Part shown: piece by piece, positions 31,421-58,314 of the stretch | Layout: each line of letters begins with the position of its first letter | Numbering within the stretch: the stretch's first letter is position 1 | From: Dirinaria sp. TL-2023a | Taxonomy: Eukaryota | Direction of reading: 5' to 3' | Assembly (NCBI GenBank): GCA_051941275.1 | Contig: JAVEBF010000007.1 | Location: 1 to 64,000 of the forward strand | DNA length: 64,000 bases | The notes under the pieces: generated by a model | Databases searched by the model: none | The model's input: only the letters and a program-made list of their open reading frames with translations | Told to the model about the DNA's origin: nothing | Position numbers and translations under genes: made by a program

Positions 31421-32807
31421 AGATCGAATCCTGGCGGCTATACAATGTATACCTACGTCCTGACGTTGAATATCATCTCTTTGAAGTCGTCTTTGTCCTA
31501 GCAGCTTCTTATTTTGCCAAAGACCTATGCTACGACATGGACATCCTTATTTGGGATCCTAGAGATTCAACGCGGCCAAAGTCCACTAATCCGCGACCTG
31601 TTTCTGCTCTGTGTTAAGCTGTAATCGGATTTCGCCGTGGATGCCGAAGCAACAGTCACAGCCACGACACGAGTAGAGCGCTTCCAGGAATTTGAAGAGA
31701 TGAGTGCGAGCATAACGGATTCGGAGGGCCTAGAACTGATCTCAAAGCATACCTCTTGAACTAGCCGAGGCATGGATTTCAGCGCAGGCTTGAATCTAGT
31801 TGGGATGAGTGTGCTTCTAAAAACGCTCACAGAGATCCGTCGAGGAGGCCGTCCAGATGGATATCTAGGAGGATTCGAGCCAGTCGTAGCCTCTAATCCA
31901 ATGCTTCATATGGCCATCTGGATTCATTAAGCTTATTCCATGGCAAGATGCCAAGGGTCCCCAGTGATCGGCTTTCCAAAGCACCCTTGAAGGAAAAAGC
32001 GAAATATATCAAAAATGGAGATTGGGAATGAAAGCCTTCATGTATTTCTCGTTTTGGAAATATTTGGGAGGTCTGTAAGCTCCGAGACTTAGGCAAAGCA
32101 AACAGAAAGATTGTTGCTCGAATATAGATTACGAGTCAATGTACCTTATACGTACGGTACCTGGTTGTGGCTCGTGAACTACTATCCTTCATTGAAGAAA
32201 GCACCGCGGCTCGCAGTCAGGTCATCAAAAGCCAGCTGAAACATGAAAACTGGCTGGGATTACTCAGTAATTGGTCATTCGTTTTGAAATGTCAGCTCGT
32301 TCTACACTGATCAAGATTCAGTCTTGCTCGTGTAGACTGAGCCCAGAGTGAGAGTTTAGATGTCATGGTGATATTATTGCAAGCACGAGCGGCTGACAAG
32401 CCCAAAATGAAACGAGAATCTTTGTAACAGTTGCAGATCTGATTCCGAGGAATTGATCGCTGAAGGAAGGTGACATGTTCTAGGTGACCCCAGCATCGAC
32501 GTTTTACCCATCTTTCAGCCAGCGTATTTCCGGGTCTCGATTCTCTCCGTATTTACAATCTTTTCTCAAATCGTTGTACAAGAGTCGGTTACAGGACTTT
32601 CGCGAGTAGGAAGAGGCTCTTCTTTCGCGAATTAATTTGTCGTGATAAACAACAACAGTGGTGTCACATTATATGCTTCAGCGTTATTGGTAGCTTCCGA
32701 AAATCTCTTAGTCCAGATGCGGGATAGCGGTTTTTCCAGACCCGTCCTTCCCCGCAAATGACCCCACACTAGAAAGTGATTGATTTACGCACTGACAACT
32801 CGATTTC

Positions 32808-32828
32808 TTTATCAGATCATCTGATAAA
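32808..32828. promoter_or_regulatory. Paired SreA-type GATA boxes (perfect inverted repeat TTTATCAGAT-C-ATCTGATAAA)
   Basis: Two ATCWGATAA matches back to back, about 270 nt upstream of the Zn2Cys6 gene. Confidence 0.75.
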
Positions 32829-33030
32829 CTCTGCTCTGCTCATTTTTTTACAGCATTATAGCCATCTCAGACGCGATTAGACTCTTTTGCCCCTATTTTG
32901 CTTTATACGATAAGAGCGGACTGATACACCAGTGGGCCGAGGTTGTTGCCGCCAAGTTCGTCCGTGTTGGCTCACTATTCTCGGTGCGGGTCCCACGATC
33001 CGAAACCGGCGTTGGGAGGGGAAATCTAAC

Positions 33031-33040
33031 TTTATCAGAT
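33031..33040 (-). promoter_or_regulatory. SreA-type GATA box
   Basis: TTTATCAGAT (reverse complement ATCTGATAAA) about 55 nt upstream of the TF ATG. Confidence 0.6.
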
Positions 33041-33093
33041 CGTTTGATCAATCTAGCCGCAGGAAATTACGCAGACCATTGCGGACCTGCTGA

Positions 33094-35497
33094 ATGTCCC
33101 CCTCTACAAGCTCGGAGTTCCGGGGAAGGGGGCTATCTCTCCATGGAGGCATTCGAAGAAAACGGATTGTACTTTCATGTTTGGCGTGCAAAAGGCGCAA
33201 AGTGAAGTGCGATCGAAGGGCACCGATCTGCACACGATGCATGGAGGGTGGCTATCCAGATCAATGCAGGTACGACGAGCGGGTGTCCACGGCCGATGAC
33301 GATAGCCGCGAGTCGCACAGTCATTCTCCTATCTCTGTGCACCATAATGCTTCAGATATTTACGCACACCAGCCAACGGGAGATGGCTCGCTCGCAGTGG
33401 CTGATACTGCAAATCCCGGCATGCGTCAGGTAACCCATCCCGAGGCTAGAATGAGATATACCTCCAATGCGCCTGGAAATCTCCCTGTGACGCCGATTTC
33501 GACGAGTAACAGCATATTTGTTACTGATGGCAGTCACAGTACTGCATCGGCAGAAGCTTCCACGAATCGCCCTTTAATCCAAGGAGCAAGCTTCAAGACG
33601 CAGTTCCACGGGGTAAGCCATTCCGTCAATATCATCGGCTACTTTGATGGGTTGCGTGGGTTTTTGAAGAGAACCGCCTCCAATCATCCCGTGCTTGGAG
33701 CACACAGATGGGCCGTGCAGACCCTCTCCAAGCGTCGCCAGCTTCCTGCTGTCCCACCAGAACAGCCTGAGGAGGTGCTGAAACGACTATTGCCATGTGA
33801 GCAGCTGTGTCGCCCGTTGATGATCTCGTATTTCAAACACTTCGAGGGCATGCTTAGGATCATCCACGGTCCTAGTTTTTGGCGCCGGTACGATGCTTAT
33901 TGGGCGGGAGGCGTTGAAAATTCCGCGCCGTTCGTTGCGCTTCTGCTAGCTGCCATATCTTGCAGCAGGTGCTTGTTTGTGGACAATCCAATCTCCTTTG
34001 ACGGAGATAGCTCCACTGCTCGGGCAGAAGCAGTTCAGTGGGTATGTGCTGTGGAGACATGGCACGACCGGCAGAGTTCGAAGCACACGACTGTGGAGAT
34101 ATTCCAGATCAAATGTCTATTGCTGTTGGCGAAAAAGCTCAATGCCATCAAAATCAAGCGTCTTTACACAGTGTCGCAGACTCTGCTCGCGAGTGCGATC
34201 TCTGTAGGCCTTCACCGGAGCCCTACCAGTCTCGGCGTGAGAGCGTCCATTTACGAAAAGGAGATGCGCAGAAGGCTGTGGGCGACAGTAGCCGAGCTTG
34301 ACTTGGCAGAAAGCATCGAGCGAGGAGTACCATCTATGGTAGCTAACCTGCACTCGGACATTGAGCCTCCTGGCAACTTTCGAGATGAGGATTTTGATGA
34401 AAATTCCACCGATGAGCCACAGCACGCCGACAAGCTCACTCTATCATCTATCGCTCGATATGCCCATGGTCTCAGGCCACTGCGGCACAGCATCAACAAT
34501 CTTGTCAACAATCCCGAGAAGCACAAAACCTTGGATTCTACGGAGTTGAACTCTTACCATGAACAGATTTTCGGCAAGTTCTTTCAGGTCAGGTCTTTAC
34601 AAAAAGAAAGCTCGTTCCCACATCACCGTGATTTGAATCATATAGGGAGCACTTATCTCGAATTGCAGTTACATGAACTTCTGATAATGCTGCACCTGCC
34701 TTTTGCTTTGGGTAAATTTTCAGGTACAACCTCTAGCCACTCGCGGTTTATCTGTAGTGGCTCCGCAAAAAGTGTGATCAGCATCTACACGCGCCTGCGA
34801 GATCAAGGCCTAAGTCAAATGTGCCTGCCGAGAACCAACATTATCCGTGCGACGCTGTGTTTATGCGTGGTCGAGTCGACAGCTATCGGCTATGGTGAGG
34901 GTCTGGATTCGTCCCACGGAGCTACGCTTGCTGATGACTTTGCAGATACCATTTACTCGACCAACTGCGGGGCAAATGAGACAATCCAATTGGTTGATCG
35001 AGCTTTGAATCTTGTCGAGGAGCGGATCCTAGTGTTGGGCGACGGCTTTCGGGGCTTTTGGCTTCTATTTGCTGCGAGTTGCTTCATTGAACCCCATAAA
35101 GATCCCGCGGTCTCTGCTGTGTGGCAGGAGAAGATCATCAATCGCATCATCGTTCTCTGTAGCAAAATATGTCTGTGTCAGGTCGACCGAAGTCGAAATG
35201 GCGACACCGCTGATGCGCTCTTTGCTCGTTACATGAAGCATATTCAGCGGACTTCTGTCTACGCCAAGGTGGACACGAGTGTCACTTCTCGAGATGGTGA
35301 AGCAGCTCTCTTGACTACTGATACCGCGGTATGTCCTTCAAGCAGGTTCCGGTGGTTCTGTCTATGCTATTACTAACAGGACTTGATAGGAGCCAGACCT
35401 CAACAACTTCAATCCTCTTATGGACGGTGTTAGCACCGATGATTGGCTGACTTCAGCTTTGAATGATTTTGGATCTTACGATTGGACGGATACGTAA
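33094..35497 (+). CDS. Zn(II)2Cys6 transcription factor with fungal-specific TF domain
   Basis: CLACKRRKVKCDRRAPICTRC...C; GLHRSP...EMRRRLW; last exon after the GTATGT intron at about 35329 ends in an acidic tail DWTDT*. Confidence 0.93.
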
Positions 35498-36448: not shown

Positions 36449-37809
36449 ATGAGCAACAAAGCTAGTGTATACATATCTATGGGTATGATGATCCTCGCAG
36501 GAGCCTTTACAACGCTTGTCATCAAATACCAGGTTCGTGGATAACCTAGAAAGATAATTATCAGCAATGTTTGATCCGTTCCCTAATTAAATAAACTTGC
36601 TTTTAGGATATTCAATGTGTTCGAAATTGCGCATCAGAAAATCCGTCTGAACGCGAAACTTTCAAGCAGCCATTTTGGCAGACCGAGCAGATGTTTGCAG
36701 GGGAAACGGGATGTTGGCTTGTTGTTGCTCTCTGGTTGGCCTTTTCGCGTGCTAAAATCTTCTTGGAGATCCGCACTGGGAATGCTGGTTCAACCGGTCA
36801 ACCCCTTACTACCGAAAATCGATACTCCCCGGATAGTGATAGGGAACCCTTTGCCCAAAATTATAGCAATGCCGGAGCCTCGAACGCCGAATCTAACGAA
36901 TTATTTCCGTTGGGACTCGAGCAGACCGCTCCACCTCCAAGCTTGTATATATTGGTATTACCTGCTTTGTGCGATATCCTAAGCACGACACTCCTCAACA
37001 TTGGCCTCCTCTTCGTCGTGCCGAGCCTTTTCCAGATGACGCGGGGTATTGTCGCTCTCTTCTCCTGCCTCTTTTCTGTTTGGTTCTTAAAACGTCGTGT
37101 AGAGATGTACAGATGGTTTGGACTCGGTATTGTTGTTCTGGGCATTGCTCTCGCTGGCTTTGCGGGTACTGCACCGCAAAATCAGGCTCAGCCAGGCGTA
37201 CAGACGCTAGGCTCTGCTGGCAGTATTCATGAAGCTGTCAGCGGTGATGCCGCGCCCGCCAGGAGAGCTTGGTTTGGCATTGCCGTCATCTCGGTCGCGC
37301 AAATTTTCGCAGCTGGCCAATTTGTCATCGAAGAGGCTGTCATGTCACGCTATTCCATCAAGCCTCTTGAGCTTGTCGGCTGGGAGGGCATTGCCGGCTT
37401 GACCGTCATCCTCATCGGCCAGCTGATCGCTCAGGTAATCTACGGATCCACCGACGCGGGGCGTGGTAGCTTTCTCGACCTGCGCCAGGGGTGGTGGGAG
37501 ATATCACATCATAAATCGGTCTGGACAGCCGGCCTAATCATTATGTTCTGTACTGGAGTGTTCAACTATTTTGCTTTGACTGTCACGCGGTCCGTCAGCG
37601 CGACAAGCCGATGTACCACTGACAATTTTCGTACACTTCTTATCTGGATAGTAAGTCTAAGTCTGGGCTGGGAAAGTTTTCACTTGCTACAATTGGTTGG
37701 CTTCATGGGACTCGTCTACGGGAATCTATTGTTCAACGAAGTCGTACGACCACCGACACTGGATGCTCGAAGACTACGCCAAAGGTTTACATTGATTCGA
37801 CGCGGTTGA
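36449..37809 (+). CDS. SLC35F6-like drug/metabolite (DMT) transporter
   Basis: MSNKASVY...IKYQ|DIQCVRNC...FKQPFWQTEQMFAGE; PALCDI; QMTRG; VGWEG; SATSRCTTD...RTL. Confidence 0.85.
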
Positions 37810-38740
37810 GCTCGCGCCTAATAGCGTATGGACACAGCCTCTATTGCTCTGCGGACGCTATAAGGGAAACGGTTTCGATAACAAAATCGCAAATACGCAA
37901 TATATTGAATTGGAAATCACTGAACGTCAGGATAATTCTGGGAAGGCCCCTGGGCCACCTGTATACATTGATCGTCGCCTATAGAGCTATCTGACCACAA
38001 GTCTGACTACTACTCACTTGATAGGGTGACCGGAGCGCAATTTCCAACACATTGACCGGTGAAAATCATCCGTAGATGATCAAAACAACAACTCTCTAGC
38101 TGGATGTAACCTGGGAAGTTACCGGAAAAGGGCACCTGGAAGTTCTAGCTCTCTACAAGATGTACCCAGGTTCCGTAAAGTCCATAGGTACTCGTACTTA
38201 GCAAAATAGCCCGTGTCAGCTCGGCCTTGGCGTTGACCCTGCTGGCTACGCCAGTGAGCCACCCTCTAGGGTAAGTGATGCGACTTGCAGCCGATCCGCA
38301 GCTGCCGGTATTTGACTGTTGACGCTGAGATTTTGGGCGGGGATTGGCCTAGCTTCGGCTATCAATGAATTGGTACTCACCCGACGGCTGAAAGCGAACT
38401 AATCTCCGCGGCACGGGGCTACGGAGTACATCGAAGCGAGTTCCTGGACTGCGGAGAAATCTATCACCGTGTTTTGATTAACCAACCTGCATAGTGACGC
38501 TAGAAACTAAACTTGCATTTCTACGAAGCTTACCGACGATTTGCTGCTTAGCGCAACGATCGCCTTGATTGGATCTGGCTAGAATTTACAGTTGATGCGA
38601 ACCTCAGCTCGATCCTCTGTACAAGATGGAAAGCATGTTCAACATTCAATCTCAATAGTGGCCGTAACAGCTTGTTCGTATAAGGAACTACAGGACATCT
38701 CATATTGGTTCTGTAGAGAGCAGGAAGTTCCCTGCGCCGT

Positions 38741-40232: not shown

Positions 40233-40814
40233 TGTGAATGTGTAGATCAGATAGCTGCCTTAATCGAAACAAGATTGAGAAGTATCGAGATCAGGCGCCG
40301 GCTCATTCAGTCTCCCATGGTTGAGAGCAGTGTCACCGTTATATAAGACTTTGGATAGTCACTGATCGGCGATAATTGTGCCCATTTTTCCTGGCGTAAT
40401 TTCATCGCTCAACTCCGAAGGAACGATACTGGAATCGCTAGAAGCACCCAATCATTTCACGTAACATCTTTCGATCCGTAGAATAGCTGCGAAAAAGCCA
40501 TTTACAATATACAATGGAGCATCCCCACGAGATCCGGCAGCTAGTTCTACCTGCCGTCTCTGAGCACAAATGGGAGTCATGTGCCCCCCACGTCTAACTT
40601 TCACGGCCCAGAGATGATGAAATGCAGGGATTATGCGGGGTTGTTTCTGCTCCCTCGGTGACAATGGCGGATTTGTTTTTACTCGTTGCTCGGGCTCATT
40701 CGCTTCGCAGAAGTTTAGTCCATGCATTTCAAAGTTCTCGGCCGTCAATGGCATTTTCTGTACTTCCAAAGAAAATGCCGAACTGCAATCCACTGAAGAG
40801 ATTTTTGAGCAAAT

Positions 40815-41798
40815 ATGATAGACACGAAGGATTATAATGCGCTGGATTTGGCTCAGCCGACCGACTTTAAGTCGATGTTACGAAAGTCTGGAGAACTACT
40901 CTGGGGAACCGCATGCCGAATCCCACACGGTGAAGCCGCTAGGATTGTGGCTACCCTGCCACATCACTTTTGCTTCATTGATGGCGTAAGCTGTGGAAAA
41001 TTATCAAAGCTGCTTTTGAAACTGACTAGTACGATGAATAGGAGCATTGTCCCCTAAGTCCAGAGCTTCTTGTCAACATTATCAGAGCCATACAATACCA
41101 CTCCAACGGCTCAATGGTCCCTTACGTACGGCTACCCCCGCGCTCGCCAGACTTCGTCAATTATGTTCTCAATGCTGGCGCTGGAGGCATTGTTATGCCC
41201 CACGTCCAGAACGTTGCGCAGGCAGAAGCTTTTGTACGGATGGCAAAATTCCCACCCTTGGGCGACCGAAGCTACCCTCCAATGGCATTATTCGGAAGGC
41301 AAACGAGAACAAAACTTGGAAAAACCGTGTATGACGTATGGAATGAGCATGCTGCACTTTTCTGTCAGATAGAAGACGTTGAGGGCGTCAAAAACGTGGA
41401 AGATATTGCCAAGGTCCCTGGAGGTTGGTGACAAATCTCGAGATCAAAGAGTCGCTTGCCACTAGACTCTAATGCCTTGACTAGTGGATGCTCTGATGGT
41501 CGGCGCTGGGGACCTTCGATGTTCGCTTGGTCTCGAAGTTGGAAGCCAGGATGGCGATGAACCAAGCTTCCAAGCAGCGCTACACAAAATCCAGGCAGCT
41601 GCCACTGCAAATGGACTTGCTGTGCTTGGCTTCGCTATGACGCCAGAGATACTCAGACGACGGGTGGAGTTGGGCTGGAAGGCTTTCATCGTACATTCAG
41701 ATGTGTCCGGAATCTTCAACTCGGGAACGCAGAGCTTTCGCTCAAATGTCGAATTAGCGGAATCTGTAAGAATCTGCCCGCAGGAAGACGAATCGTAG
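40815..41798 (+). CDS. HpcH/HpaI-family class II aldolase/citrate lyase-like protein
   Basis: FCFIDG|EH; YVRLP; LNAGAGGIVMPHV; FPPLGDRS; QIED; VGAGDLRCSLG. Confidence 0.9.
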
Positions 41799-42235
41799 AA
41801 GCGAATTTTACAGGCTAGCTGTACTAAAGCATCTCAAGATCGACTAGAAATGAATTTCATATTGTACTCAGACACGCACTGTGTCTTTTCTGAGACACTG
41901 CAACTTACATCTTCCAACCCCAGAAGTGAGTGTCTTTCCAGCTATAAGACTAAACCACCTGTTAGAGTGGTTAGCTCAATGACCATCGCCGCGCCCGCTT
42001 GCGAACTATGCGACACCCTTCGGCTTTCTACGGTCGCGTTTGGTTGGCCAGACTAAGCACCGGCTAGCTATGCCTAGAAGCCCGCAGGAAAAGTACTTTT
42101 CGCTGCATTGTAGCCAGGAGTCCTGGAAGAATGGCTTTAAGTCCGAGAAAAGCCACATGTTAATTGATTCCTAGCCAAGGTTCTACATCCCTCTGCTATC
42201 ATACTTTAATCTCACCTCCTTCTCGGATTTGAAAG

Positions 42236-46788: not shown

Positions 46789-46858
46789 CCATCTTTTACG
46801 TAGGGATACTAAGTTCATGTATGCAGTCGTTGTATATGTACGTATTGCAGAGTAAGCA

Positions 46859-48715
46859 TCATTCTATGGTCACGTGCCACTCCTTGCGAATCTCTTCCGC
46901 CTTCTTAAGAAGATCTTTCCTGCCTTTCCTCGTGTTGACCACCACTGTTGCCATGTATGTCATATCCACTGCGTCTGGAGGGGTTACATACTGTCCGCGG
47001 GCAAATATATTATTATAGAGAGGAATACATTCCATCAAGTCCGGACGGGACCGCCTCAGTTCCTCGGTAGGATCGGGTGACGTTAGAATACCACCTTTCT
47101 CGGGCATGATGAGCACTAGAGCACTCGAGTGCTGTGGACCGTGCACAAAGGGAGCCGCGAATGCCTTGAAACGTTGCTCGTCTCCTATGCAGCGAAGGAC
47201 ATGCATGGCATAGAGATCGACGCCATATGTCCAAGTCAAGGCCTGAAGGCCATAGTAACCGGCGGGGCGTGGGTTCACTTCAAGCATGAAAATACCAGGT
47301 TTCGTGCTAGGGGGTGATGCTTTGAACTCCAGATCGACGGTACCACTCCTATCAGTATAGGCCATTGAAGAGTTTTGGATCCGAGCCTCAATATGGAACA
47401 AACCTGTACGGAAACCCATGCGTAAGACACTGTCCCGAAGACACGAGACTGCCAATTCCTGCTCTGATTGCGGCAATACAGAAGGATAGACGAACATGGT
47501 CTCTTGAAAGTCATTACGTCCATGTCCCACCTTGTCGTTCTTGGAGACATCGGCAGCGCAGGGAAAGTTATCTGACACATCGGCAAAGAGGACTTCTCCG
47601 TCCCACAAAGCCATGTCGACGTCAATTTCAGGGCCGTCTATGTACGGTTCTACCATTATCTTCGATTGGATTGGCTTGCCTGCTTCGTATCCGATGACAC
47701 GTGAGCGCGCTTTCGTGACGGCGGCCAACATCTCGGCCTCTGTATTGACTTTGACTACACCCCAGCTTGTCCGACCAGTACAGGGTTTGACGACAATGGG
47801 ATAATCAACCTTTAGCGAGCGCAGCCGTTGCTGCAGCTCTTCTTCGTCTGTAACGCACAAGGCAGAGTTATGATCATGCTCTAGCATCCGAGCTCCATAT
47901 TTGTCCGTGGCAATCGCAAATGCAGAGGGCGGAGATGCCGGTAGTCCCAGTAGGTTGGCGGCTAGAGCGACCTTTGTGTGGAAAATATCAAAACGGGTAT
48001 GCAGGCCATCTACCTTCTGCCCTTGCAAAGCATCGACGATGCGTTGAGGAAGCGCTGCGTCGGGATTCAGATCAATAGGGCAAAAAGCCTCCCGTAAATG
48101 GGCCAATGGGCCGTTGGGATCCTCGAGATAGTGGCCTGGCTGGTCCAGCACAACAAGTCCTAACCCCATAGCCTTGATTGTCTCGTATGAGAGATTTTCA
48201 GGCAAACAGCCTACGATTGCAACCCTTTTATATCGTATAGGTTCAGGCAGTAACCATTGGATGGAGAGACGATTCGTGATCTCTAGTTCTAACTTCTCCA
48301 AACTATCCTCAATGCGTCCGCATTCCACCGATTGGACGGAGATCGCTCCTATTGCAGAGTCTAGGATGGTTTGCAGTTGGTTGGCAGCGCTCTGCTCTTT
48401 CTCAGGTTTAAAAGCTAGAACATGCTGTCGAGGGGCGACAAATCTAGAAGCCAACTTGACAAGTTCACAACCAAAAAAGCGAAACTCTACCATGTCTGAG
48501 CGTGCGACGTATCCCTCACGAGCAGCGAGAATGACCTTGATTCCCAGGCGCTTCGCATCGGTCGCAACATCGTGCGCGCGTTGAATGAAGCTTGAGATGG
48601 CTGATTGACTCTTGGAGAGTGAAGTCGTGCAGTCATGGTCGTACCCGACCGCCGGGTGCGCATTCGAACACTCGTCTTCGATAAGGAGGTCAACCGTTCG
48701 GACGTCGAGAGACAT
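46859..48715 (-). CDS. ATP-grasp amino-acid ligase (FsqD/AnkG-like fungal type)
   Basis: AFAIATDKY; YPIVVKPCTGRTSWGV; VEPYIDGPEID; FHIEAR; LEVNPRPAG. A short upstream exon (about 48750-48950) is possible. Confidence 0.9.
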   Translation of the reverse strand: MSLDVRTVDLLIEDECSNAHPAVGYDHDCTTSLSKSQSAISSFIQRAHDVATDAKRLGIKVILAAREGYVARSDMVEFRFFGCELVKLASRFVAPRQHVLAFKPEKEQSAANQLQTILDSAIGAISVQSVECGRIEDSLEKLELEITNRLSIQWLLPEPIRYKRVAIVGCLPENLSYETIKAMGLGLVVLDQPGHYLEDPNGPLAHLREAFCPIDLNPDAALPQRIVDALQGQKVDGLHTRFDIFHTKVALAANLLGLPASPPSAFAIATDKYGARMLEHDHNSALCVTDEEELQQRLRSLKVDYPIVVKPCTGRTSWGVVKVNTEAEMLAAVTKARSRVIGYEAGKPIQSKIMVEPYIDGPEIDVDMALWDGEVLFADVSDNFPCAADVSKNDKVGHGRNDFQETMFVYPSVLPQSEQELAVSCLRDSVLRMGFRTGLFHIEARIQNSSMAYTDRSGTVDLEFKASPPSTKPGIFMLEVNPRPAGYYGLQALTWTYGVDLYAMHVLRCIGDEQRFKAFAAPFVHGPQHSSALVLIMPEKGGILTSPDPTEELRRSRPDLMECIPLYNNIFARGQYVTPPDAVDMTYMATVVVNTRKGRKDLLKKAEEIRKEWHVTIE

Positions 48716-49128
48716 CCTCCAGCCATTGTTGCGCCATTGGAAGTGGCTTCGCTTCGCTGGATGAAGAGGTTGTCATTAAAATGTTGTCCCAGGAACGAAT
48801 TTTGGAGGTGCATGAGGATACGTACCAGAGGATCCAGCGTATTCGTTCATATTTCAGGGGGGCCTGCTATTTCGAGGGTCGCACTGGCGTCATGAAGCGT
48901 CTCGGACACCGGAACGCTCTCCCAAAATGGAAAGCAACGACAATACATTTTCACTGGCTCGCGAATTGGGAGTGAGAGCACAGTACTCAGTGGTCATCGG
49001 AATTAGCTACAAAAGAAAGTTCTTGCTGATGTCCGACTCGGCCGTCGTGCAAATAAGAATGTCCGCTAAGCTCGCTCAACACTAGCGGCGTTAGTGTATG
49101 GCCACCTGCCAAGATTGGGTGCCAGATA

Positions 49129-49335
49129 ATCTGATAAAAAGCGGATCTCTCTCGGCCGAGTCGGAGATCATCAGATTAGACAACACATCTCACATGAAAT
49201 CATGTCCGAAACGCATTCGACTTTCGACAATCTTTGATTTTCACGAAAGCCCGACTTCGGAAGATGTCGGACACTAGTTGCTTACTGACTGTGGCATGGG
49301 AAGGGAAGCGTATTATCTGATAAGATCATCTTATC
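49129..49335. promoter_or_regulatory. Cluster of SreA-type GATA boxes in the ATP-grasp/POT divergent promoter
   Basis: ATCTGATAA at 49129; TTATCTGATAA at 49313-49323 matches ATCWGATAA on both strands; GATAAGAT-C-ATCTTATC inverted repeat at 49319-49335. Confidence 0.7.
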
Positions 49336-49478
49336 TCATCGCATCAATTGTAAGTCATCGTAATTGCTCCCCCTTATTTAGAAAAAGGCCTTTCTTTCGA
49401 GGTTTTACAGCAACACGTGCCGAGTCTCTATTTTAAAAGTTTTTTGAGCCGTTCTCAAGTCTTTCGAAAATCGATAGA

Positions 49479-51410
49479 ATGGTGACCACCGGAATTAATG
49501 AGACAAAAAGTGAAAATGAAAAGGACGTGGATGTCGAACAAAGTCACCCTGACCCAAAACCTACCCACACATCAGCCGAAGGCGAGCCTGCGACTGAGGA
49601 GGAATTGCAAAATCTATTCCATGTCGTCGATGACATACCCATCGGGGTATGGCTTGCGGCCTTCGTGGCCTCCGCAGAACGGTTCACTTGGTTCGGCGCG
49701 ACGGGTCCTCTACGTTAGGCTTGTTTTCCCAGATGTATTCAAATTACTAATATAGTGCAGAAAACTACCTTCAACATGATCGCCATAGCGGAATCCCAGG
49801 AGCCTTAGGGCTGCAACAAGCAACAGCTACGCTGGTCATGACCAGTTTCATGGCTTTCTCTTATTTTACCCCTCTGCTCGGAGCAATAGTTGCAGACGCG
49901 TGCCTCGGCCGCTATAGGACGACTTTCGTGTCCGCACTGTAGGTTTCCCGTAATGAGGTTGTTCAGGACTGACATCCTTGCTAGTATTGTCTCCCTTGGG
50001 GCTCTGATTCTGAACTTGACGTCCATCCCGGCTGCAATACAGCACGAGGGTGTTGCGGCTGCCGGACTGGCCGTGGCAATGCTTTTGTTTTCATTTGGGT
50101 CTGGTGGGGTCAGAGCCGCCGTCACGCCCTTCATAGGTACGTCGGTCTCCTGCTACTTGTCAACAATCCAGCTGACTGATCTACCAGCCGACCAATACAC
50201 CGAGACAGTTCCAAGGATTAAGATCTTGAAAAATGGAGAGAAAGTCGTCGCTGATCGCGAGCTTACCATCTCCTACATCTACAACGCTTATTATTGGTAT
50301 GCAACGTCCATAAATACGAACGTGGTCTGATTGCTGCTATAGGATGGTCAATATTGCGGGCCTGGCAGCCCTTGGCACAACGTTCTTGGAAAAGTATGTT
50401 GGCTTTTGGGCAGCATTTCTGCCTCCTGTTGGCGCCATGGCCCTTGGTGTACTCCCGCTCCTGCTGTTCAGAAGAAAATTTGGTAAGTCACTATACAGCC
50501 TTCGTATCAAGATGTTGACGGTAAAATTCCAGTTAGGCATGCTCCTTCCGGCGCAGTCTTGGTCAAAGCTTGCCGAGCCATATGGCTTGCCATTAGAGGC
50601 GGATTTTGCATGAATGCAGCCAAACCAGAAAATCAGGTGGAGAAATGCTATAGGGAAGTTCCCTGGGATGACCGGTTCATTGACGAACTCAAGCTTGCAC
50701 TTTTTGCCTGCCGGATTCTGTAAGTGATCCATCTTTGAATATGCAGCGCTGACAATGGTAGACTAGTCTTTCCATTCCATTGGCTCTGCCTTAATCAGAC
50801 CTTCAACAATCTGATATCCCAAGCAGGCCAGATGGTCAATTCTGGCGTACCAAATGATGCTATCAAATCAACAAACCCTTTGACAGGCATCTTATTCTAT
50901 CCGTTCGTCCAGAAACTCGTGTATCCATGGTTACGGCGACGCCACATCAAGTTTCGCTCTTGCGCCCGCATCACATTTGGTTTCTTCCTTCTAGCCGCCG
51001 CAATGGGCTATGCAGCAGGTCTACAGCAAATGATTTACAATAGCGGACCCTGCTACAACGAGCCGCTCAAATGCCCTTCATCAAATGGTGGCCGGGTTCC
51101 CAACCAGATTTCAATGTTCTTGCAGGTGCCGATTTATTCGGTTGGGGGGATGGCAGAGTTGTTTTGCCTCCCTACCGGCACGGAGCACGCATACAACCAA
51201 GCACCGAAAAGTATGCGGTCCATTATACAGTCTGTCTCGATCGCTATGGCCGGAGTTGGTGCGTGTCTCGCAATGGCTTTTACTCCACTTGCAAAGGATC
51301 CGCACCTTGTCATTCTGTACACATGCTTGACGGGCATTCTGGTTGCTGCTACGGCCACTTTCTACTTTTGTTTCAGGAGCATTGATAAGGAAAAAATTGA
51401 GATGCTTTGA
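49479..51410 (+). CDS. POT/PTR2-family oligopeptide transporter (MFS)
   Basis: AERFTWFG; GALGLQQATA; GAIVADACLGRYRT; GSGGVRAAVTPFI|ADQY; YNQAPKSMRS; several introns. Confidence 0.9.
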
Positions 51411-51935
51411 ATTACAGCGGTTTAGATAAAAATCCCAATTCCCTTAGCAACGAGGAGATGATACAGATCAAAAGAGAATAGAGCTTGCCAACACAATTAG
51501 AGATAGATAGAGCATCAATAGAGACTAACATGCTAGATGTGTCGAAGTTTGACGAAGCTAAGACAAATTTGCATTCAGCAATTGAGTTCAGCTTCTGCTA
51601 TCTGAGGAGCAAGATCGGTCAGAGTCTAGGTCTAAGTACCTCGTGCGTTCGGGGATTTCAAAAGTCAATAATGTAGGCTAAGGAAAGAACAGAGCTCCAG
51701 CAAAATAAAGTTTTCACGAAGTGACGATGGACCAATTCGCCATGAAAGTGCCACTGTCAAATCGACAAATCGTTAAGTGCCAAAAAAAAAAAACGCTAGA
51801 AAAAGATGGCTTTTGCAATTTTAATTCTGAAACATCGAATTGAGAAGAAATACATTGATAGACGATAGTAAGTACTTTAGTGATCAATGCAACATGTAGG
51901 GAGAGAAAGAATTCTGGATGTCAGCACACCCCAAA

Positions 51936-52787
51936 TCAGCTTGCTACGTCATACGCATATCGTTCTGCATTCTGATTGCTTTCAGCCACCCAGCCATTGA
52001 TGTACGTCGGGACTCCTTTGGTCGAATTTGTCGGCGCTGGAACAGGTTCCCCTAACTGCAGAAAAGCAGGTATGACCCCTGCCCACACCTTTTCCCTCAT
52101 TCTCTCATCCTTCAGGTCCTTCCTATCCTCTCCTGTCGTTCCAACGCGGATTTTGGCGCTCGCACTTTCAATCTCTACGCGCAAAATGCCCGTGCTGTTT
52201 AGCTCCGTGGCGTTTGGGTATCGGGTGTTCTCCCATCGCTGAGGAACGAGATTGTTAGTGATGAGCTCCATAGCGTAAATTCTCTCAGCTTCGTCTTTCA
52301 CAAAGTACGCATGGCCAAATACCACGGCAGAGCGGTAGTTGCAGCTGTGGTGGTTAGGTGTCAGAGCGAGGACGATGCCGTCAAGCTGAGTCGCGGCGAC
52401 GCAGACCGGAATGCTGCCCGTCGGCTCTGCTCCATCTTTGGCGTCATGCGCTAGTCGCAGAAAACGCGAGGACACATAGCCGTGGAGATAGATCACGCGG
52501 CACTGATCTCGGTCTTCTGTGTCCGAATTCGGATAATTGCTGCTACATCCTAGCATGGGGAGTATGACAGGGAAGGTGGGTTTCCTTTCTTCTGCTTCTG
52601 TTTCAAAGGACACGTGTAGAATAGGAGTTTCGTCCACGATTGTATTGACCGTATGGTAGTCATATTTACCTCCATTCGCGGCGCCTGTCAGTTTCTCGCT
52701 TATTAAATAGCGGAGAAGTCCCAAACCTCTGTTTCTATATCTGTTAACGGTGTTCAATTTGGTTTTCTCCCATCCTTGATACTCCAT
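51936..52787 (-). CDS. Pyridoxamine-5'-phosphate-oxidase-like split-barrel flavin-nucleotide-binding protein (NimA/FDOR-like)
   Basis: NTVNRYRNR|GKYDY; ILHVSF; IYLHGYVSSR; LDGIVLALTPNHHSCNYRSAVVFG; SASAKIR; VWAGVIP; one in-frame 57-nt intron. Confidence 0.85.
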   Translation of the reverse strand: MEYQGWEKTKLNTVNRYRNRGLGLLRYLISEKLTGAANGGKYDYHTVNTIVDETPILHVSFETEAEERKPTFPVILPMLGCSSNYPNSDTEDRDQCRVIYLHGYVSSRFLRLAHDAKDGAEPTGSIPVCVAATQLDGIVLALTPNHHSCNYRSAVVFGHAYFVKDEAERIYAMELITNNLVPQRWENTRYPNATELNSTGILRVEIESASAKIRVGTTGEDRKDLKDERMREKVWAGVIPAFLQLGEPVPAPTNSTKGVPTYINGWVAESNQNAERYAYDVAS

Positions 52788-53303
52788 ATCCGCTGTGACT
52801 GATTTTGGGTATAATGAGCAGATTCGCAATAGAGCAATCGGATATTATACTTACATGACTGAGAAATACCGTTGACTGTCCTGTCTAGAGTTGAAGAGTT
52901 CCCGAATATTGACAAAAGCAAGTACGGCTTAGCAAATTTCGGCCGAGACCTTTAGACAATCATAGCGCGTGTCCACTCGAGCATACTACATGGTAAGCCT
53001 TGCGGCGCGGCTCATCATTTAATTAATTTGCATATGCATATGCCATTACGTCCCACGCATTGACCTGTAACGGCGCCAAGCCACCATTAAACGGTCGACA
53101 GAGTGGGGTGTTTTGGCATACGGTGTGGTGGTCGTCTGACGATCGTATTGGACTCTCGGACAGGCGATCGACCTTTCCATACACCGTGGCCCCTGTAGGT
53201 GCTCATAAGTCCGACTAGTCAGGCTTGGAAGAGCATTATTATAGCCGTAAGTAAAGGGAGCCCTTGCCCAAATCGTCCTTCGCACCACCTGAGGCTGCCA
53301 GCC

Positions 53304-55103: not shown

Positions 55104-55387
55104 TTAACCCTCGAGGGAAAAACCTGACGTGCCTGAAAAGGCACACTTGAGCATATCGCACTCATAGAAGAGATCTACACCTACGACCCTGCCTAGAGAG
55201 TTGCCAGGATTCAAAGGATTGAAGACGAAGAGTAAAGCCGAGGGAAGACTGCGTAAACGCCGAGCAAGCGTGTAAACCCCACGTTCGGAATTTGCCCTAC
55301 TTTTGTAGCTTTCATGAGATCATTATTGAATGGTAGACTGATTTAGTCGGTCTTGGCTTCGGTACTCTAAGCGAACCATTTGTAATT

Positions 55388-55406
55388 TTTATCAGATCAT
55401 CTAATC
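55388..55406. promoter_or_regulatory. SreA-type GATA box upstream of ferric reductase
   Basis: TTTATCAGATCATCT is identical over 15 nt to 32808-32822, with an imperfect second half. Confidence 0.7.
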
Positions 55407-55866
55407 ACAAATTGTGATAGCCGACGGCACTCTTGCGGAGATTGCTGCAACTGACCGAACTTGTCAAGCCGTTGCATGTTCCCTTAGCGTTTAAGAAAGC
55501 CATACGAATGATAGTATTGACGCTCACCCGAAGAGCAAATTCTTCGAATGCATGGTATATGGAGTTGGAAACGTGCTGCATGTAGGTATAACTTCTCTAT
55601 TGTCCAGATAAAAGAGCGCTTTAATATATACCTTGATCTTAGCAGACAGCAGAATCCTCTGCAGATTACCAATTGCGCTCGAAGGTAGCTAGGACGATGG
55701 AGATTTGGCCACGCCAATGAAACGATGCCGGCAAGTTGCTCGATGATCCCTGCAGTTGCTTTACCGTGCCCGTGCTCCATGCAGCTTATATTGCCCGACC
55801 GATCCTAAGTTTTGCATCCCATCTCCAGGACTTTGTACATCTATTATCCAGGCAGACTCTTCCATT

Positions 55867-58314
55867 ATGAAATTCTTCGTCGGCCTAGCCCTAACGCTTT
55901 GTGTGCCGCTCGTTTCAACAGAGTCCAGGAGTGATCCTTCGCCGAATCAGTATTGCTTTGCGGCGTGTCAAACTACCTTTAGTGGACAGAATTTCAGCGG
56001 CTCTCCATCGACCGCTGACGGAGATACTGCTGGAAACTGTGCAAATGCTCTCTTTGTGCGGTCAACTTTTCTCTGCGCCAAAGCCTACTGTCCGGATGAC
56101 CAAGCTCGCGCGGGGTACGCCTACGCGAACGAACAATGCGAGTCGAGTGGATACAGTCTTCCTAGTCTATCCATTGTGGACAATGTGACCATGGAAAATA
56201 TCCAAACCATGCAAACTCTTCAATATGGAGACATTCCACCTGTGATCAATAGTACAATCATTCCATCTGCAGACCTCTTCCAACTTGGATTACGTACTAT
56301 GGTAATCATTTCTTTTTCCGTGACTTACATCTCTGACTTAGCTTCAGGTGTGGTGGTACGGAGGCTTTGCAAATCATCTTTGGTATTCGTATGTAAGCCT
56401 TGCCATAACACGGATGAAAGCTGAAGTGGATTAGAAAGGCGATATTCATCTTCTGGGGTATCATTATCGGGCTCGGTACCGGAGGCAACCTCCTTTCTAT
56501 CCTCAAAAGTAGGATACAGGCTCCAAACAACAAAGATCTTGAACGCCGAGCAATTTCTCAATCGGTGCCACCAGCTAGGCGCTTGTGGGACCAAATTCGT
56601 GCCCATTTCCTTCTACCAGCCTTGTACGGGAAGCGCTGTAACGAAGTAAAATGGCAGGCGACTGTCCCACCTCGATCGGAATCCGTGGTCATCATCATGC
56701 ACATTATTTTGAATGTAATCTTATGTGCCGTGTCATACTCCGCATTCTCTGGCAACCTTTACTGGGACAGCAGATCAATTCAGATCTGGCGCTTGTTCTC
56801 AGATCGTACTGGGTACATGGCGTACGCCAATTTTACTGTCTTCTTCGCGTTTGCTATCCGAAACAATATTCTGATATGGCTGACTGGATGGGAATTCCCG
56901 ACTTTCAATCGGTTTCATCGCTGGGTTGCTCGCGTGGCTACTTTAGAGGCTCTGCTGCACTCGATTGGATACACTGTTTATGACCTCCTAGATAGTTTGG
57001 AGGCGTACCAGGCGGATTTTGCAAGCCGATACTGGTGAGTAGCAGAAATCTCGACCGATGAGTGGAACAAAACCCCGATTGATGAATTTGAGTTAATGAG
57101 TTTTAGGTGGACGGGCGTTATCGCCACAATTTGTATGTGTCTAGTGCTCGCGTTCTCGATTAAATGGCTGCGAGCCAGATCTTACGACGTCTTCTTGCTA
57201 TTACACATCGCACTATCACTTACAACGCTCGTTTGCCTCTTTTACCACACCAAGATCTTCTATGGAAAGTATGACGGCTTTTTGTGGCCTTGCGTCGCCT
57301 TTTGGGGCTTCGACAGGCTTTGCCGTCTGGCACGTATCCTATATTTCACTCGCGGAGCCGATGTGGTGAGAACCATGGTGGATTTTGACGATGGAAGTGG
57401 AATAGTCCGCATTGATGCAACCAACACATTCCTACCGAGGAAAACCCCAGGAGGCGTTCATTTCTTTTTGTAAGGCCTGGCATCTTATGTGGATCACTTT
57501 CGCTGATACAAGGATAGATATTCCCCCTTCGCGCTGCTGGGATGGCAGAGTCACCCATTCACACTAGTGCGCTGGCTCGAGTCAGGCCAGTCTAGCACAG
57601 GTTCGGCGTCCCCAGCTTTGAGTACAAGTTTAGAGGAAAAGGGGCCGAGCGTGGAGAGTCCAGCTCAAGCACAACACACATCAATGCCGGAAGGCTCGCC
57701 AAGATATAGCTTCCTGGTGCGCCCGATGAACGGATACACTGCTCGGCTTCGTCGCAAGGTGATCGCAAACTCGGGGCCCGCGTCAATGAAGCTTCTTTAC
57801 GAGGGGCCTTATGGAAAGGTCCCCAGGGTTGATCGCTTCGCCAACATCTCTCTGCTGATCGGTGGCAGCGGAATATCTGTTGGTATTTCGTATATCTACA
57901 AAGCTCTCGCCGGAAACCCTGAAACTGTGGTAAACCTTGTGTGGACCTGTAGAAAGTCGCCACTGTATATGGATTCCATCATGAACAAGGAGCTCAGGTC
58001 TGCGCTCGACACAGGTCGGCTGACGGTTGATGCGTAAGCAAGGCATCCTTTTTGTTTGCACGGACTGACGAGGACGTAGATTCTTCACCGGTGGCCCTTG
58101 GAAAATTAAAGAAATACCATGCAGAACCGTCTCAGAAGGTCGACCCGACATAGCTACCGCGGTACACCACGCGATTACGCGACGGCGGGGATCATTGGCG
58201 GTGGTGGTTTGTGGACCAGCGTCGTTGATGGATGATGCGCGAGCTGCGTTTGTTTCTGAACTAAAGCATGGGGAGACTGATATCGAGCTTTTCTTGGAAT
58301 CGTTCAACTGGTGA
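55867..58314 (+). CDS. Ferric/cupric-chelate reductase (FRE family)
   Basis: Signal peptide and Cys-rich N-terminus; RNNILIWLTGW...FHRWVAR...H; FLLLHI...FYH heme His residues; ESHPFT (FAD); EGPYG; GGSGIS; VCGP; ESFNW*. Confidence 0.92.

Follow-up and report, generated by a model that had tools for sequence, protein, structure and literature searches.

A candidate iron-regulated, NRPS-independent metallophore gene cluster in the lichen fungus Dirinaria sp. TL-2023a

What a fungal gene cluster with none of the usual assembly enzymes produces, and whether its product handles iron, is the question raised by a locus of Dirinaria sp. TL-2023a. We analyzed a window of 64 kb (contig JAVEBF010000007.1, positions 1 to 64,000; the whole stretch of DNA studied), in which all 12 gene families proposed by the first-pass annotation were present at 32800..58314 (Table 1). 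Gene content was determined by Pfam search of the 39 stop-to-stop ORFs of at least 100 aa located at 28.7–60.1 kb. AMP-binding/Condensation, IucA_IucC, PKS, and K_oxygenase families were matched by none of these 39 ORFs; as had been claimed, no NRPS, NIS, PKS, or SidA-type ORF is found among them. The SLC35-like transporter gave weak Pfam matches (36607-37806; Nuc_sug_transp, 23.9 bits; EamA, 23.8 bits), both below the curated cut-offs, and its assignment was backed by an ESM Atlas features search (EamA/Nuc_sug_transp/SLC35F clusters, scores 0.95-0.97); this protein is a candidate exporter. Past the ferric reductase (FRE) gene, at 58.3-64 kb, no recognizable gene was found: 1 of 22 ORFs of at least 70 aa had any Pfam match (CARM1, 19.2 bits, below the cut-off of 22). 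A highly reducing (HR) PKS is encoded elsewhere in the window (~3.4-11.7 kb), more than 21 kb outside the cluster; the interval holds genes for an amino-acid permease and a DEAD-box helicase (28684-30504).

Table 1. Genes and promoter motifs of the cluster (positions in the window).
Feature	Position	Strand	Basis
Zn2Cys6 transcription factor (TF; Zn_clus + Fungal_trans)	33094..35497; exons 33094-35328, 35390-35497	+	Pfam match 33094-35373; last exon, our gene finder alone
DMT-superfamily (EamA/nucleotide-sugar-transporter/SLC35-like) membrane protein	36479..37984; main exon 36607-37743	+	Pfam, ESM Atlas; outer exons, our gene finder alone
TauD/TfdA-family Fe(II)/2OG dioxygenase, 412 aa	38741..40232; exons 40232-39847, 39792-39314, 39263-39220, 39170-39066, 39014-38895, 38845-38741	-	TauD match 39267-39803
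HpcH/HpaI-fold class II aldolase-type enzyme, 288 aa	40815..41798; exons 40815-40985, 41042-41423, 41485-41798	+	HpcH_HpaI match 41042-41795
GST-like protein	42236..43116; three exons	+	GST_C match 42481-43113; exons, our gene finder alone
Class I aminotransferase (AT), aspartate/aromatic type, 414 aa	43301..44750; exons 44750-44711, 44656-44544, 44483-44162, 44116-43459, 43412-43301	-	Aminotran_1_2, 43431-44120
Beta-lactamase-fold serine hydrolase (S12 peptidase-like) with DUF3471, 535 aa	45181..46788; single exon	+	Beta-lactamase + DUF3471, 45133-46785
ATP-grasp ligase, L-amino-acid-ligase type	46859..48772	-	ATP-grasp_4 + ATPgrasp_N, 46862-48772
POT/PTR2-family peptide transporter, 549 aa	49479..51410; exons 49479-49713, 49761-49938, 49985-50136, 50188-50296, 50343-50482, 50533-50719, 50762-51410	+	PTR2 match 49890-51407
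Pyridox_ox_2 split-barrel flavoprotein-like protein, 283 aa	51936..52787; single exon	-	Pyridox_ox_2 match 51939-52844
CndF-like PLP enzyme (Cys_Met_Meta_PP + N-terminal extension), 566 aa	53304..55103; exons 53304-53492, 53543-54450, 54500-55103	+	Pfam match 53543-55100
Ferric-reductase-family (FRE/NOX-type) membrane protein, 743 aa	55867..58314; five exons	+	Ferric_reduct + FAD_binding_8, 56418-58034; five-exon structure, our own model
Three exact ATCTGATAA boxes, TF promoter	32809-32817, 32819-32827, 33032-33040	-, +, -	Motif scan
Three exact SreA-type boxes, divergent ATP-grasp/POT promoter	49129-49137, 49313-49321, 49315-49323	+, -, +	Motif scan
One exact SreA-type box, FRE promoter	55389-55397	-	~470 bp upstream of FRE start codon
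Exact 9-mer TCTCGGCCG	40736, 49150, 52940 (span 40736..52948)		Three divergent enzyme promoters: TauD/HpcH, ATP-grasp/POT, Pyridox_ox_2/CndF-like

The cluster genes are real, and at least five of them are spliced and transcribed in a lichen thallus. Lichen metatranscriptome contigs (one sample of one study, from a relative; 95-99% identity to the window) covered 8 of the 10 genes compared, with GT-AG introns removed in the TauD, HpcH, AT, POT, and CndF-like genes. All five TauD introns and both HpcH introns were confirmed, as were introns 44117-44161 of the AT gene and 53493-53542 of the CndF-like gene, the latter also covered by a contig at 53930-54340. In the POT gene, RNA joints 50134/50186 and 50719/50769 and a contig at 51132-51310 were found; the S12 hydrolase gene was covered at 45763-46499, and the FRE gene showed little RNA depth (bin 56428-57091). 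The ATP-grasp and Pyridox_ox_2 genes had no RNA cover, which is no evidence either way. These contigs show transcription and splicing only and carry no information on iron.

Iron control is suggested by the promoters. The motif ATCWGATAA was defined on the SreA regulon of A. fumigatus and agrees with proven binding sites of SreA orthologues (PMC2610380). Seven exact boxes were found in the window (1.23 expected; largest count among 100 shuffles, 5; none reached 7), a signal far above chance, and all seven lie inside three cluster promoters (TF, ATP-grasp/POT, and FRE), the first-pass annotation having also noted such boxes in three promoters; those of the TF promoter are 54-285 bp upstream of the TF ATG (33094). 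The loose HGATAR motif was not enriched in the window (191 vs. 178 expected; 12 of 100 shuffles reached the observed count). Judging by these motifs, the GATA repressor SreA would bind the boxes before the regulator, ATP-grasp/POT, and FRE genes when iron is replete; when iron is scarce, the box-bearing genes would be released, and the Zn2Cys6 regulator would turn on the remaining enzyme genes. A candidate site for this regulator, chosen post hoc, is TCTCGGCCG, with four exact copies in the window (0.35 expected; 0 of 100 shuffles reached 4), the fourth at 63607, outside the cluster; the longer palindrome was not significant.

The exact box is absent from five of the eight cluster promoters, as it might be if an ordinary cluster for a secondary metabolite derived from amino acids (TF to ATP-grasp) had come by chance to neighbor POT and FRE genes of the iron regulon, its product having no metal-handling role. 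We consider such a chance neighborhood quite improbable: three boxes stand directly upstream of the cluster's own regulator, three more occupy the common ATP-grasp/POT promoter, and the ATP-grasp/POT and CndF-like/FRE partnerships recur elsewhere. ATP-grasp and CndF-like genes shared a contig, as assigned from contigs of equal size and locus tags and not from contig sequence, in 6 of the 12 named species found in both match lists (Dirinaria, Fulgogasparrea, Dothidotthia, A. affinis, A. leporis, and Xylaria flabelliformis), 3-6 genes apart where tags were given. Fused gene models place homologs of the AT (51-61% identical; A. affinis), GST (48%; Aspergillus melleus), and S12 hydrolase (59%; Xylaria) directly beside the CndF-like gene. 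The enzymatic core is thus syntenic in other ascomycete classes. For the FRE, co-localization was seen in part: in Wetmoreana, a second lichen genus, the FRE gene is the next one after the CndF-like gene (Q9179_004091/004092), but a weak, word-based search found none for the Aspergillus, Xylaria, and Fulgogasparrea clusters among 43 FRE relatives. This could mean that the FRE was added in the lichen lineage; the lack of an FRE match for the Aspergillus and Xylaria versions would also suit a chance neighborhood.

The ATP-grasp/POT pairing, in turn, recurs in five further taxa (six loci; POTs 36-48% identical). Three of these loci, from two taxa, also carry an FRE gene, and the 22-27% identity of these FREs to each other and to that of the window suggests repeated recruitment. 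At the POT/FRE sister loci L002, L003, L004, and L011, no exact SreA box was found, nor anything convincing at one mismatch in the promoters.

The predicted ATP-grasp enzyme has 618 aa from the ATG at 48715 (640 aa in database model P0002), including an extra N-terminal domain of ~170 aa. Its AF2 model (pLDDT 90.8) and sequence comparison suggest that it is closest to dipeptide-forming L-amino-acid ligases: BL00235 (3vot; TM 0.84 on target), BacD/YwfE of bacilysin, and RizA matched its catalytic part (~residues 186-640) best, in sequence as well as in fold. These bacterial enzymes are only 13-18% identical, lack the fungal N-terminal domain, and form antibiotics or simple dipeptides. To our knowledge, every biochemically characterized L-amino-acid ligase of secondary metabolism yields an antibiotic dipeptide and none a chelator, which counts against a metallophore.

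In a FastTree of 96 ATP-grasps, the enzyme fell into a 42-row clade (support 100) together with CndF-co-located ATP-grasps and the Uncinocarpus reesii 'ATP-grasp enzyme uncJ' (P0020, UniProt name; 49% identity over 99%), of a presumed 'unc' cluster. U. reesii proteins were found neither among the best 120 of 961 CndF-like relatives nor among the 43 FRE relatives. Our literature search found no paper behind the name uncJ, so a related cluster may already be characterized; with this named relative, absence of a match to a characterized cluster cannot be affirmed. All six POT-adjacent loci, which are metagenomic, belong to one 19-row clade (support 99) adjoining the 42-row clade, the fork joining the two being unresolved. 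The family also occurs in ordinary secondary-metabolite settings: beside an NRPS-like A-T-R protein and Aminotran_5 (L013, which presumably resembles the fumisoquin cluster, such loci probably being the FsqD context), P450, DMATS, and ABC genes (L018, L032), or NRPS and sulfotransferase genes (L027). In a further clade, the ATP-grasp gene is divergently paired with a nicotianamine synthase (NAS) gene (PF03059, E 1e-58) in all four loci with an upstream flank (L020, L022, L023, L026), and each common promoter carries a ATCTGATAA box, the only exact one in L020, L022, and L023; L026 has a second at 6048. The window itself lacks NAS (tblastn).

The gene first described as CGS-like encodes a protein (561 aa in database model P0070) that can be aligned over its full length with CndF (PDB 8zif), a PLP-dependent enzyme carrying out gamma-substitution in the biosynthesis of citrinadin. 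The alignment (residues 4-542 vs. 20-551; E 2.6e-65) takes in the N-terminal extension and the SLTK lysine motif; BesB (E 4e-31) and ordinary CGS (1e-14) followed. CndF makes a pipecolate building block as part of an NRPS pathway, whereas the CndF-like enzyme here is accompanied by an ATP-grasp, an aldolase, an aminotransferase, and TauD. We infer that the O-acyl-homoserine gamma-substitution expected of the CndF-like enzyme amounts chemically to 3-amino-3-carboxypropyl transfer. Together with the NAS pairing, this lends unexpected strength to an analogy with plant mugineic acids drawn in the first-pass annotation.

An iron-starvation-induced antimetabolite is another reading of the ligase. 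A toxic non-proteinogenic amino acid would be masked as a dipeptide by the ATP-grasp and taken up by competitors through their own peptide permeases ('Trojan horse'), the S12 peptidase and POT serving maturation or self-protection and the FRE merely being a neighboring member of the iron regulon. The closest ATP-grasp folds, with 3vot first, agree with this, as does the aldolase, aminotransferase, and ATP-grasp logic, which resembles that of rhizocticin-type pathways; among the relatives of the S12 hydrolase are the prodrug peptidase ClbP, D-peptidases, and PBP-related esterases, and resistant copies of the targets could be encoded by the AspAT-like and CGS-like genes. We nevertheless find it rather unlikely, since FRE paralogs were recruited more than once beside related ATP-grasp/POT pairs, NAS is the partner gene, with an SreA box, in a further clade of these ATP-grasps, the PLP enzyme is, among solved structures, far nearer biosynthetic CndF than housekeeping CGS, and the pathway regulator itself carries SreA boxes.

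Regarding the remaining enzymes, TauD carries the H-x-E motif (WHNE) and the distal H/R (QHAR), and the aminotransferase matches AspAT/TyrAT (E about 1e-41). The closest solved relative of the HpcH exon is macrophomate synthase, followed by 4tv5 and 4tv6 (E about 1e-13), deposited as '2-dehydro-3-deoxyglucarate aldolase' and which we take to be SbnG of staphyloferrin B; if so, the proposed SbnG analogy holds at the sequence level, though not as the best match. HpcH aldolases, TauD, aminotransferases, Cys/Met gamma-lyases, and beta-lactamase-fold hydrolases are also typical catabolic families, POTs are importers, and the host is a lichen symbiont living among partner microbes. The cluster could then serve piracy of a foreign peptide-like metallophore or peptide, the FRE stripping iron, the POT importing the ligand, and the hydrolase, gamma-lyase-type PLP enzyme, aminotransferase, aldolase, and TauD degrading it to central metabolites. 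There is little probability of this in our view: the conserved anchor of all related loci is an ATP-consuming ligase, a DMT-type candidate exporter is present, the PLP enzyme best matches a synthase, and a Zn2Cys6 regulator of its own is in keeping with, though not exclusive to, a biosynthetic cluster.

The best reading, to which we give an even chance, is an iron-starvation-induced, NRPS-independent pathway to a pseudo-dipeptide metallophore. The metallophore interpretation already put forward is favored by synteny, transcription, iron boxes, and the POT/FRE and NAS neighbors, and weakened by the sister POT/FRE loci without an exact box. As the enzyme families suggest, the HpcH-fold enzyme would couple the enolate of pyruvate or oxaloacetate with a carbonyl partner to a hydroxy-oxo-acid, which the AspAT-type aminotransferase would convert to a hydroxylated dicarboxylic amino acid; TauD may add a further hydroxyl. 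The CndF-like enzyme would move a 3-amino-3-carboxypropyl unit from O-acyl-homoserine to a nucleophile, a net transfer equal to that of nicotianamine synthase, whose donor is SAM, and the ATP-grasp would close the amide bond. The S12 hydrolase, GST, and split-barrel flavoprotein may tailor, mature, or recycle the product. Export by the DMT protein, reduction of the ferric complex at the cell surface by the FRE, and re-import of ligand or complex by the POT would complete the cycle. We think that the product is a small chelator derived from amino acids, namely a pseudo-dipeptide of the aminopolycarboxylate or hydroxycarboxylate kind.

The plant nicotianamine/mugineic-acid pathway comprises NAS, the aminotransferase NAAT, a reductase, and the IDS 2OG dioxygenases; bacterial opine metallophores include staphylopine and pseudopaline, the latter with a DMT/EamA-type exporter. 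The cluster would share with these systems the 3-amino-3-carboxypropyl transfer, an aminotransferase, a 2OG dioxygenase, and iron-deficiency control, and other fungi pair NAS with a homologous ATP-grasp gene. It differs in that NAS is absent and the donor would be O-acyl-homoserine, not SAM; its amide-forming ATP-grasp, POT, and FRE have no counterpart there. With fungal siderophores of the SreA regulon (NRPS hydroxamates; NIS rhizoferrin), it has in common the ATCWGATAA boxes and a clustered transporter, reductase, and hydrolase, but SidA, NRPS, and IucA/IucC are missing, and POT and DMT proteins stand in place of SIT-type MFS transporters. A 2025 paper names FsqD (fumisoquin), AnkG (NK13650), and Cp1B/Cp2B (E-64) as 'limited examples' of natural-product ATP-grasps in fungi (PMC12568646). 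They too serve fungal pathways in which amide or C-C bonds are assembled in non-canonical ways, but Cp1B and AnkG are of the glutathione-synthetase-like type as opposed to ATPgrasp_N/ATP-grasp_4, and none of the four is linked to iron. Product, metal binding, and iron response are all predicted here from genes and motifs; on this best reading, evenly poised as it is, the cluster probably represents a biosynthetic route so far undescribed in fungal iron uptake, leading to a small amino-acid-based metal chelator.

The window is of fungal origin, and its ATP-grasp protein was 100% identical to one attributed to a metagenome-assembled genome of Dirinaria, a lichen mycobiont. All twelve gene families named in the first-pass annotation, from the Zn2Cys6 regulator to the ferric reductase (FRE), were recovered at their positions by a Pfam search of the 28.7–60.1 kb stretch of the window, covering every stop-to-stop ORF with a minimum length of 100 aa. 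The claimed lack of a core enzyme was also borne out: no NRPS, NIS, PKS or SidA-type domain was encoded among the 39 ORFs of this region, so that neither the SidA-type N-monooxygenase nor the NRPS or IucA/IucC synthetase of a canonical NRPS/NIS siderophore cluster was present. For the transporter described as SLC35F6-like, Pfam gave only sub-threshold matches (Nuc_sug_transp/EamA), and the assignment stood on a language-model look-up, which placed the protein firmly in EamA/nucleotide-sugar/SLC35 clusters; the ESM Atlas output consisted of generic family names only. Neither the ORFs to the right of the FRE gene nor the small ORFs between the cluster genes had significant Pfam matches. A separate highly reducing PKS (HR-PKS) cluster was found in the same window. 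Its synthase (3.4–11.7 kb) was considered as a cluster member and rejected, because a gap of over 21 kb, in which the DEAD-box helicase and the amino-acid permease are located, separates it from the cluster.

Coordinates of features in the window and in metagenome loci carrying ATP-grasp relatives
Feature	Sequence	Position	Strand	Remark
HR-PKS cluster	window	1357-16259		
P450 of HR-PKS cluster	window	1357-2721		
HR-PKS	window	~3385-11686	minus	KS, AT, DH, C-MT, ER, KR, ACP domains
FSH1 serine hydrolase of HR-PKS cluster	window	14067-14549		
Transferase-family acyltransferase of HR-PKS cluster	window	15003-16259		
Amino-acid permease	window	21650-23187		between HR-PKS cluster and 12-gene cluster
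Fungal-rhodopsin-domain protein	window	25177-25560		between HR-PKS cluster and 12-gene cluster
DEAD-box helicase	window	28684-30504		left border of 12-gene cluster
SreA boxes (3)	window	at most 285 bp upstream of Zn2Cys6 regulator		
SreA boxes (3)	window	divergent ATP-grasp/POT promoter		
SreA box (1)	window	470 bp upstream of FRE		
TauD micro-exon	window	39220-39263		44 nt
POT intron	window	50137-50187		51 nt, in frame
9-mer TCTCGGCCG, exact	window	40736, 49150, 52940, 63607		
FRE	window	55867-58314		
ATP-grasp/POT/FRE cluster	L003	4461-20964		
ATP-grasp/POT/FRE cluster	L011	7074-19369		
NAS/ATP-grasp pair	L020	7208-11818		
NAS/ATP-grasp pair	L022	734-5031		
NAS/ATP-grasp pair	L023	471-4990		
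NAS/ATP-grasp pair	L026	7202-11791		
ATP-grasp with NRPS-like protein	L013	4170-11677		
ATP-grasp in P450/DMATS cluster	L018 and L032	1-11815		

Intron-aware gene models were built with a small script and then corrected with RNA junctions from three runs of one natural lichen thallus metatranscriptome sample, the contigs of which were 95–99% identical to the window. RNA contigs covered eight of the ten genes in the stretch 38500–58400; ATP-grasp and Pyridox_ox_2 were uncovered, which is uninformative for contigs. GT-AG introns were spliced out in TauD (5/5), HpcH (2/2), the aminotransferase, POT and the CndF-like gene. The introns flanking a TauD micro-exon were removed in the RNA, and a POT intron was exposed by the contigs; both features are missing from the ab initio models. 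The corrected proteins were 412 aa (TauD), 414 aa (aminotransferase), 549 aa (POT) and 566 aa (CndF-like) in size, the last agreeing at 99.5% with its database model P0070. The cluster genes are thus genuine, and a close relative transcribes them under natural conditions.

The window ATP-grasp protein carries ATP-grasp_4 and ATPgrasp_N domains in Pfam, and its sole solved relative by sequence was the L-amino-acid ligase 3vot (E 1.4e-10). The AlphaFold model (pLDDT 90.8) had its best Foldseek matches in 3vot, BacD/YwfE and RizA, so the fold is nearest to dipeptide-forming ligases and the enzyme is predicted to be of L-amino-acid-ligase type. An additional N-terminal domain, some 170 residues long, had no match. 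An iron-induced Trojan-horse dipeptide, a reading to be weighed beside these dipeptide-forming relatives, appears unlikely as the product.

The PLP enzyme annotated as CGS-like does belong to the Cys/Met-PLP family; its closest solved relative is CndF, the gamma-substitution enzyme of citrinadin biosynthesis, far above bacterial CGS. P0070 aligned to CndF (8zif) over residues 4–542 versus 20–551 (E 2.6e-65), with the long architecture retained and the SLTK motif of the PLP lysine in register, which makes it a CndF-type protein; the runners-up among solved structures were BesB (E 4e-31) and bacterial CGS (E 1e-14). CndF may be alone among the long fungal CGS proteins in having a solved structure, and separation from housekeeping CGS therefore rests on the patchy list of taxa. 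The aminotransferase was of the aspartate/aromatic type (E ~1e-41). As regards the analogy drawn earlier between the HpcH enzyme and SbnG, macrophomate synthase was the nearest match of the HpcH exon, followed by two entries deposited as 2-dehydro-3-deoxyglucarate aldolase (4tv5/4tv6), which are probably SbnG. TauD had distant solved relatives only, with the H-x-E...H motif kept, and the Pyridox_ox_2 protein matched uncharacterised flavin-binding split barrels. The beta-lactamase-fold protein fell among S12 peptidases and esterases, its relatives there including ClbP and D-peptidases. A cluster for uptake and degradation was also considered, and we regard it as quite improbable.

The earlier report of SreA-type boxes in three promoters was confirmed. 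The extended site of the GATA iron repressor SreA, ATCWGATAA, had seven exact occurrences in 64 kb, each in one of three intergenic stretches within the cluster, versus 1.23 occurrences expected; none of 100 dinucleotide-preserving shuffles reached seven. The extended motif and its match to proven binding sites of SreA orthologues are given in a study on SreA of Aspergillus fumigatus (PMC2610380). No exact box was present in the other five promoters of the cluster, a distribution that fits a cascade in which iron control would pass through the cluster regulator. There was no enrichment in the window of the looser HGATAR motif or of ATCWGATAA at one mismatch (38 vs 31). Regarding the regulator's own sites, no CGG-Nx-CCG spacing was common to the promoters, and the palindrome CTCGGCCGAG was not significant (3 vs 1.71, reached by 25 of 100 shuffles). 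The 9-mer TCTCGGCCG, picked post hoc from the three divergent enzyme promoters, was found four times in the window versus 0.35 expected: once in each of these promoters and once outside the cluster near the window end. It may be a binding site of the Zn2Cys6 regulator, and is treated as a lead because of its post hoc choice and because the longer palindrome was not significant.

Conservation was analyzed by comparing the named matches of the ATP-grasp (68 relatives) and CndF-like (120 listed of 961) proteins; calls of a shared contig were made from source contigs of equal size, with locus tags 3 to 6 apart where given. At least 12 species occurred among the matches listed for both. In six of the 12 (Dirinaria, Fulgogasparrea, Dothidotthia, Aspergillus affinis, A. 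leporis and Xylaria flabelliformis) both genes were on one contig; this was not seen in A. flavus, A. bertholletiae, A. melleus, Cudoniella, Trapelia and Apiospora, some assemblies of which are fragmented. Mis-fused database models joined the CndF-like protein to an aminotransferase 51–61% identical to that of the window in A. affinis, to a GST (48%) in A. melleus and to a beta-lactamase/DUF3471 protein (59%) in Xylaria. The shared contigs and fused models indicate a core common to Lecanoromycetes, Dothideomycetes, Sordariomycetes and Eurotiomycetes. The synteny expected of a biosynthetic cluster was thus found for its enzymatic part (ATP-grasp, CndF-like enzyme, aminotransferase, GST and S12 hydrolase), which is co-located in distant taxa. 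The view that an ordinary secondary-metabolite cluster and the iron-regulon genes POT and FRE are neighbours by chance has little probability in our judgement.

Among 43 relatives of the FRE, that of the lichen Wetmoreana adjoins its CndF-like gene (tags 004092 and 004091), and in Dothidotthia FRE, ATP-grasp and CndF-like genes lie on one 1.0-Mb scaffold. Aspergillus, Xylaria and Fulgogasparrea contributed no FRE match, which counts for little because the search requires shared words. Unlike the ATP-grasp and CndF-like proteins, the FRE had no 100% self match among database proteins of 362–2000 aa, and its gene may be missing from the deposited annotation or split there.

A scan of metagenome contigs with the single ATP-grasp protein returned no relatives, versus 80 loci with an alignment-based scan; the 33 loci of fungal type (L001–L033) were searched with all 12 cluster proteins. 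A POT gene (36–48% identical) was beside ATP-grasp in six of them (L002/L003, representing one taxon, L004, L008, L011 and L016), and FRE was additionally present in L002/L003 and L011; the other nine cluster proteins were found in none of the 33. Accessory enzymes vary among the POT/FRE loci. L003 encoded a heme-oxygenase-like HODM_asu-like protein, a beta-eliminating lyase and a 2OG oxygenase, and L011 a PALP-rhodanese fusion and two methyltransferases; the best solved match of the fusion was 8h4q/8h4h ("Rhodanese domain-containing protein", E 4e-47). The three FREs were just 22–27% identical to each other, suggesting that FRE paralogs were probably recruited more than once beside this ATP-grasp family. 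Exact SreA boxes were not found in the POT/FRE loci.

In a FastTree phylogeny of 96 ATP-grasp proteins, the deep forks of which lack resolution, one 19-row clade (support 99) held all POT-linked loci, and a 42-row clade (support 100) united the window enzyme, its lichen relatives, UncJ and all six enzymes co-located with CndF-like genes. A third clade grouped with proteins of Madurella, Chaetomium, Cladorrhinum and Lasiosphaeria. In all four loci of this clade having an upstream flank, representing at least three distinct sequences, ATP-grasp formed a divergent pair with a gene for nicotianamine synthase (NAS; PF03059, E 1e-58), and an exact ATCTGATAA box lay inside the shared promoter (4/4; background of 8 boxes per 371 kb of loci). 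The pair looks like an undescribed two-gene module of Sordariales-like fungi; no open-access paper joining nicotianamine synthase, ATP-grasp and fungi was found, nor one joining CndF and ATP-grasp. Other relatives occurred with an NRPS-like A-T-R protein and Aminotran_5 (L013, presumably a fumisoquin-like context), in a P450, DMATS and ABC-transporter cluster (L018 and L032), and with an NRPS, a sulfotransferase and TauD. Such ordinary secondary-metabolite settings indicate that the family as a whole is not confined to metal biology.

The protein of Uncinocarpus reesii named "ATP-grasp enzyme uncJ" in UniProt was 49% identical to the window enzyme. Because UncJ is nested in the clade of the latter, a related cluster may have been described before, which is a risk to novelty. 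No published source of the name was found in the open literature, and U. reesii had no match among the 120 listed of 961 CndF-like relatives or among the 43 FRE relatives. Among the metagenome relatives, L001 is the one closest to UncJ; its upstream flank contained no sizeable ORF. In a 2025 paper (PMC12568646), the ATP-grasp enzymes listed for fungal natural products are FsqD, AnkG and Cp1B/Cp2B only; none of these is linked to iron.

Taken together, gene families, promoter boxes and genomic context give, in our estimate, about an even chance that the cluster is a chelator pathway induced by iron starvation and operating without NRPS or NIS. Under sufficient iron, SreA would repress the regulator, the ATP-grasp/POT pair and FRE. 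When iron is short, a hydroxylated dicarboxylic amino acid would arise through the HpcH enzyme together with the AspAT-type transaminase; the alpha-hydroxy-carboxylate end of such a compound is a classical Fe(III) ligand. TauD would add a further hydroxyl. The CndF-like enzyme would move a 3-amino-3-carboxypropyl unit off O-acyl-homoserine, the net reaction being that of nicotianamine synthase, and ATP-grasp would form the amide bond. The DMT protein would export the product, FRE would reduce the ferric complex, and POT would recover the ligand or the complex. The scheme gives no particular step to the S12 hydrolase, the GST and the flavoprotein. In working logic, the nicotianamine/mugineic-acid and opine-metallophore pathways are closest to the cluster, which differs in using other enzymes for the key transfer and in adding an amide ligase. 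The window had no tblastn match of a fungal NAS.

A broader reading, tentative and somewhat doubtful in its entirety, is that one ATP-grasp family of L-amino-acid-ligase type underlies a third fungal chelator route beyond NRPS and NIS, with at least three architectures: the NAS pair under an SreA box, a dedicated POT with independently recruited FREs, and the CndF-like type found here, in which the CndF-like enzyme would supply the nicotianamine-like 3-amino-3-carboxypropyl unit out of O-acyl-homoserine and an aldolase, an aminotransferase and a 2OG oxygenase would give a mugineic-acid-like arrangement. On the same joint reading, lichen mycobionts would have a means of iron acquisition invisible to genome mining based on core enzymes.

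Fungal iron chelators are NRPS hydroxamates and the NIS product rhizoferrin. An ATP-grasp/PLP route to aminocarboxylate chelators, if it exists, would be a new class of fungal metallophores. It would offer a mining rule for clusters devoid of core enzymes, namely an ATP-grasp of this family with POT, FRE, NAS or CndF-like genes and SreA boxes, and culturable carriers (Aspergillus section Flavi relatives, Xylaria and Dothidotthia) make the idea directly testable. If true, it would also account for the ATP-grasp gene beside nicotianamine synthase genes in Sordariales and would provide a candidate metal-acquisition system for lichen and plant-associated fungi.
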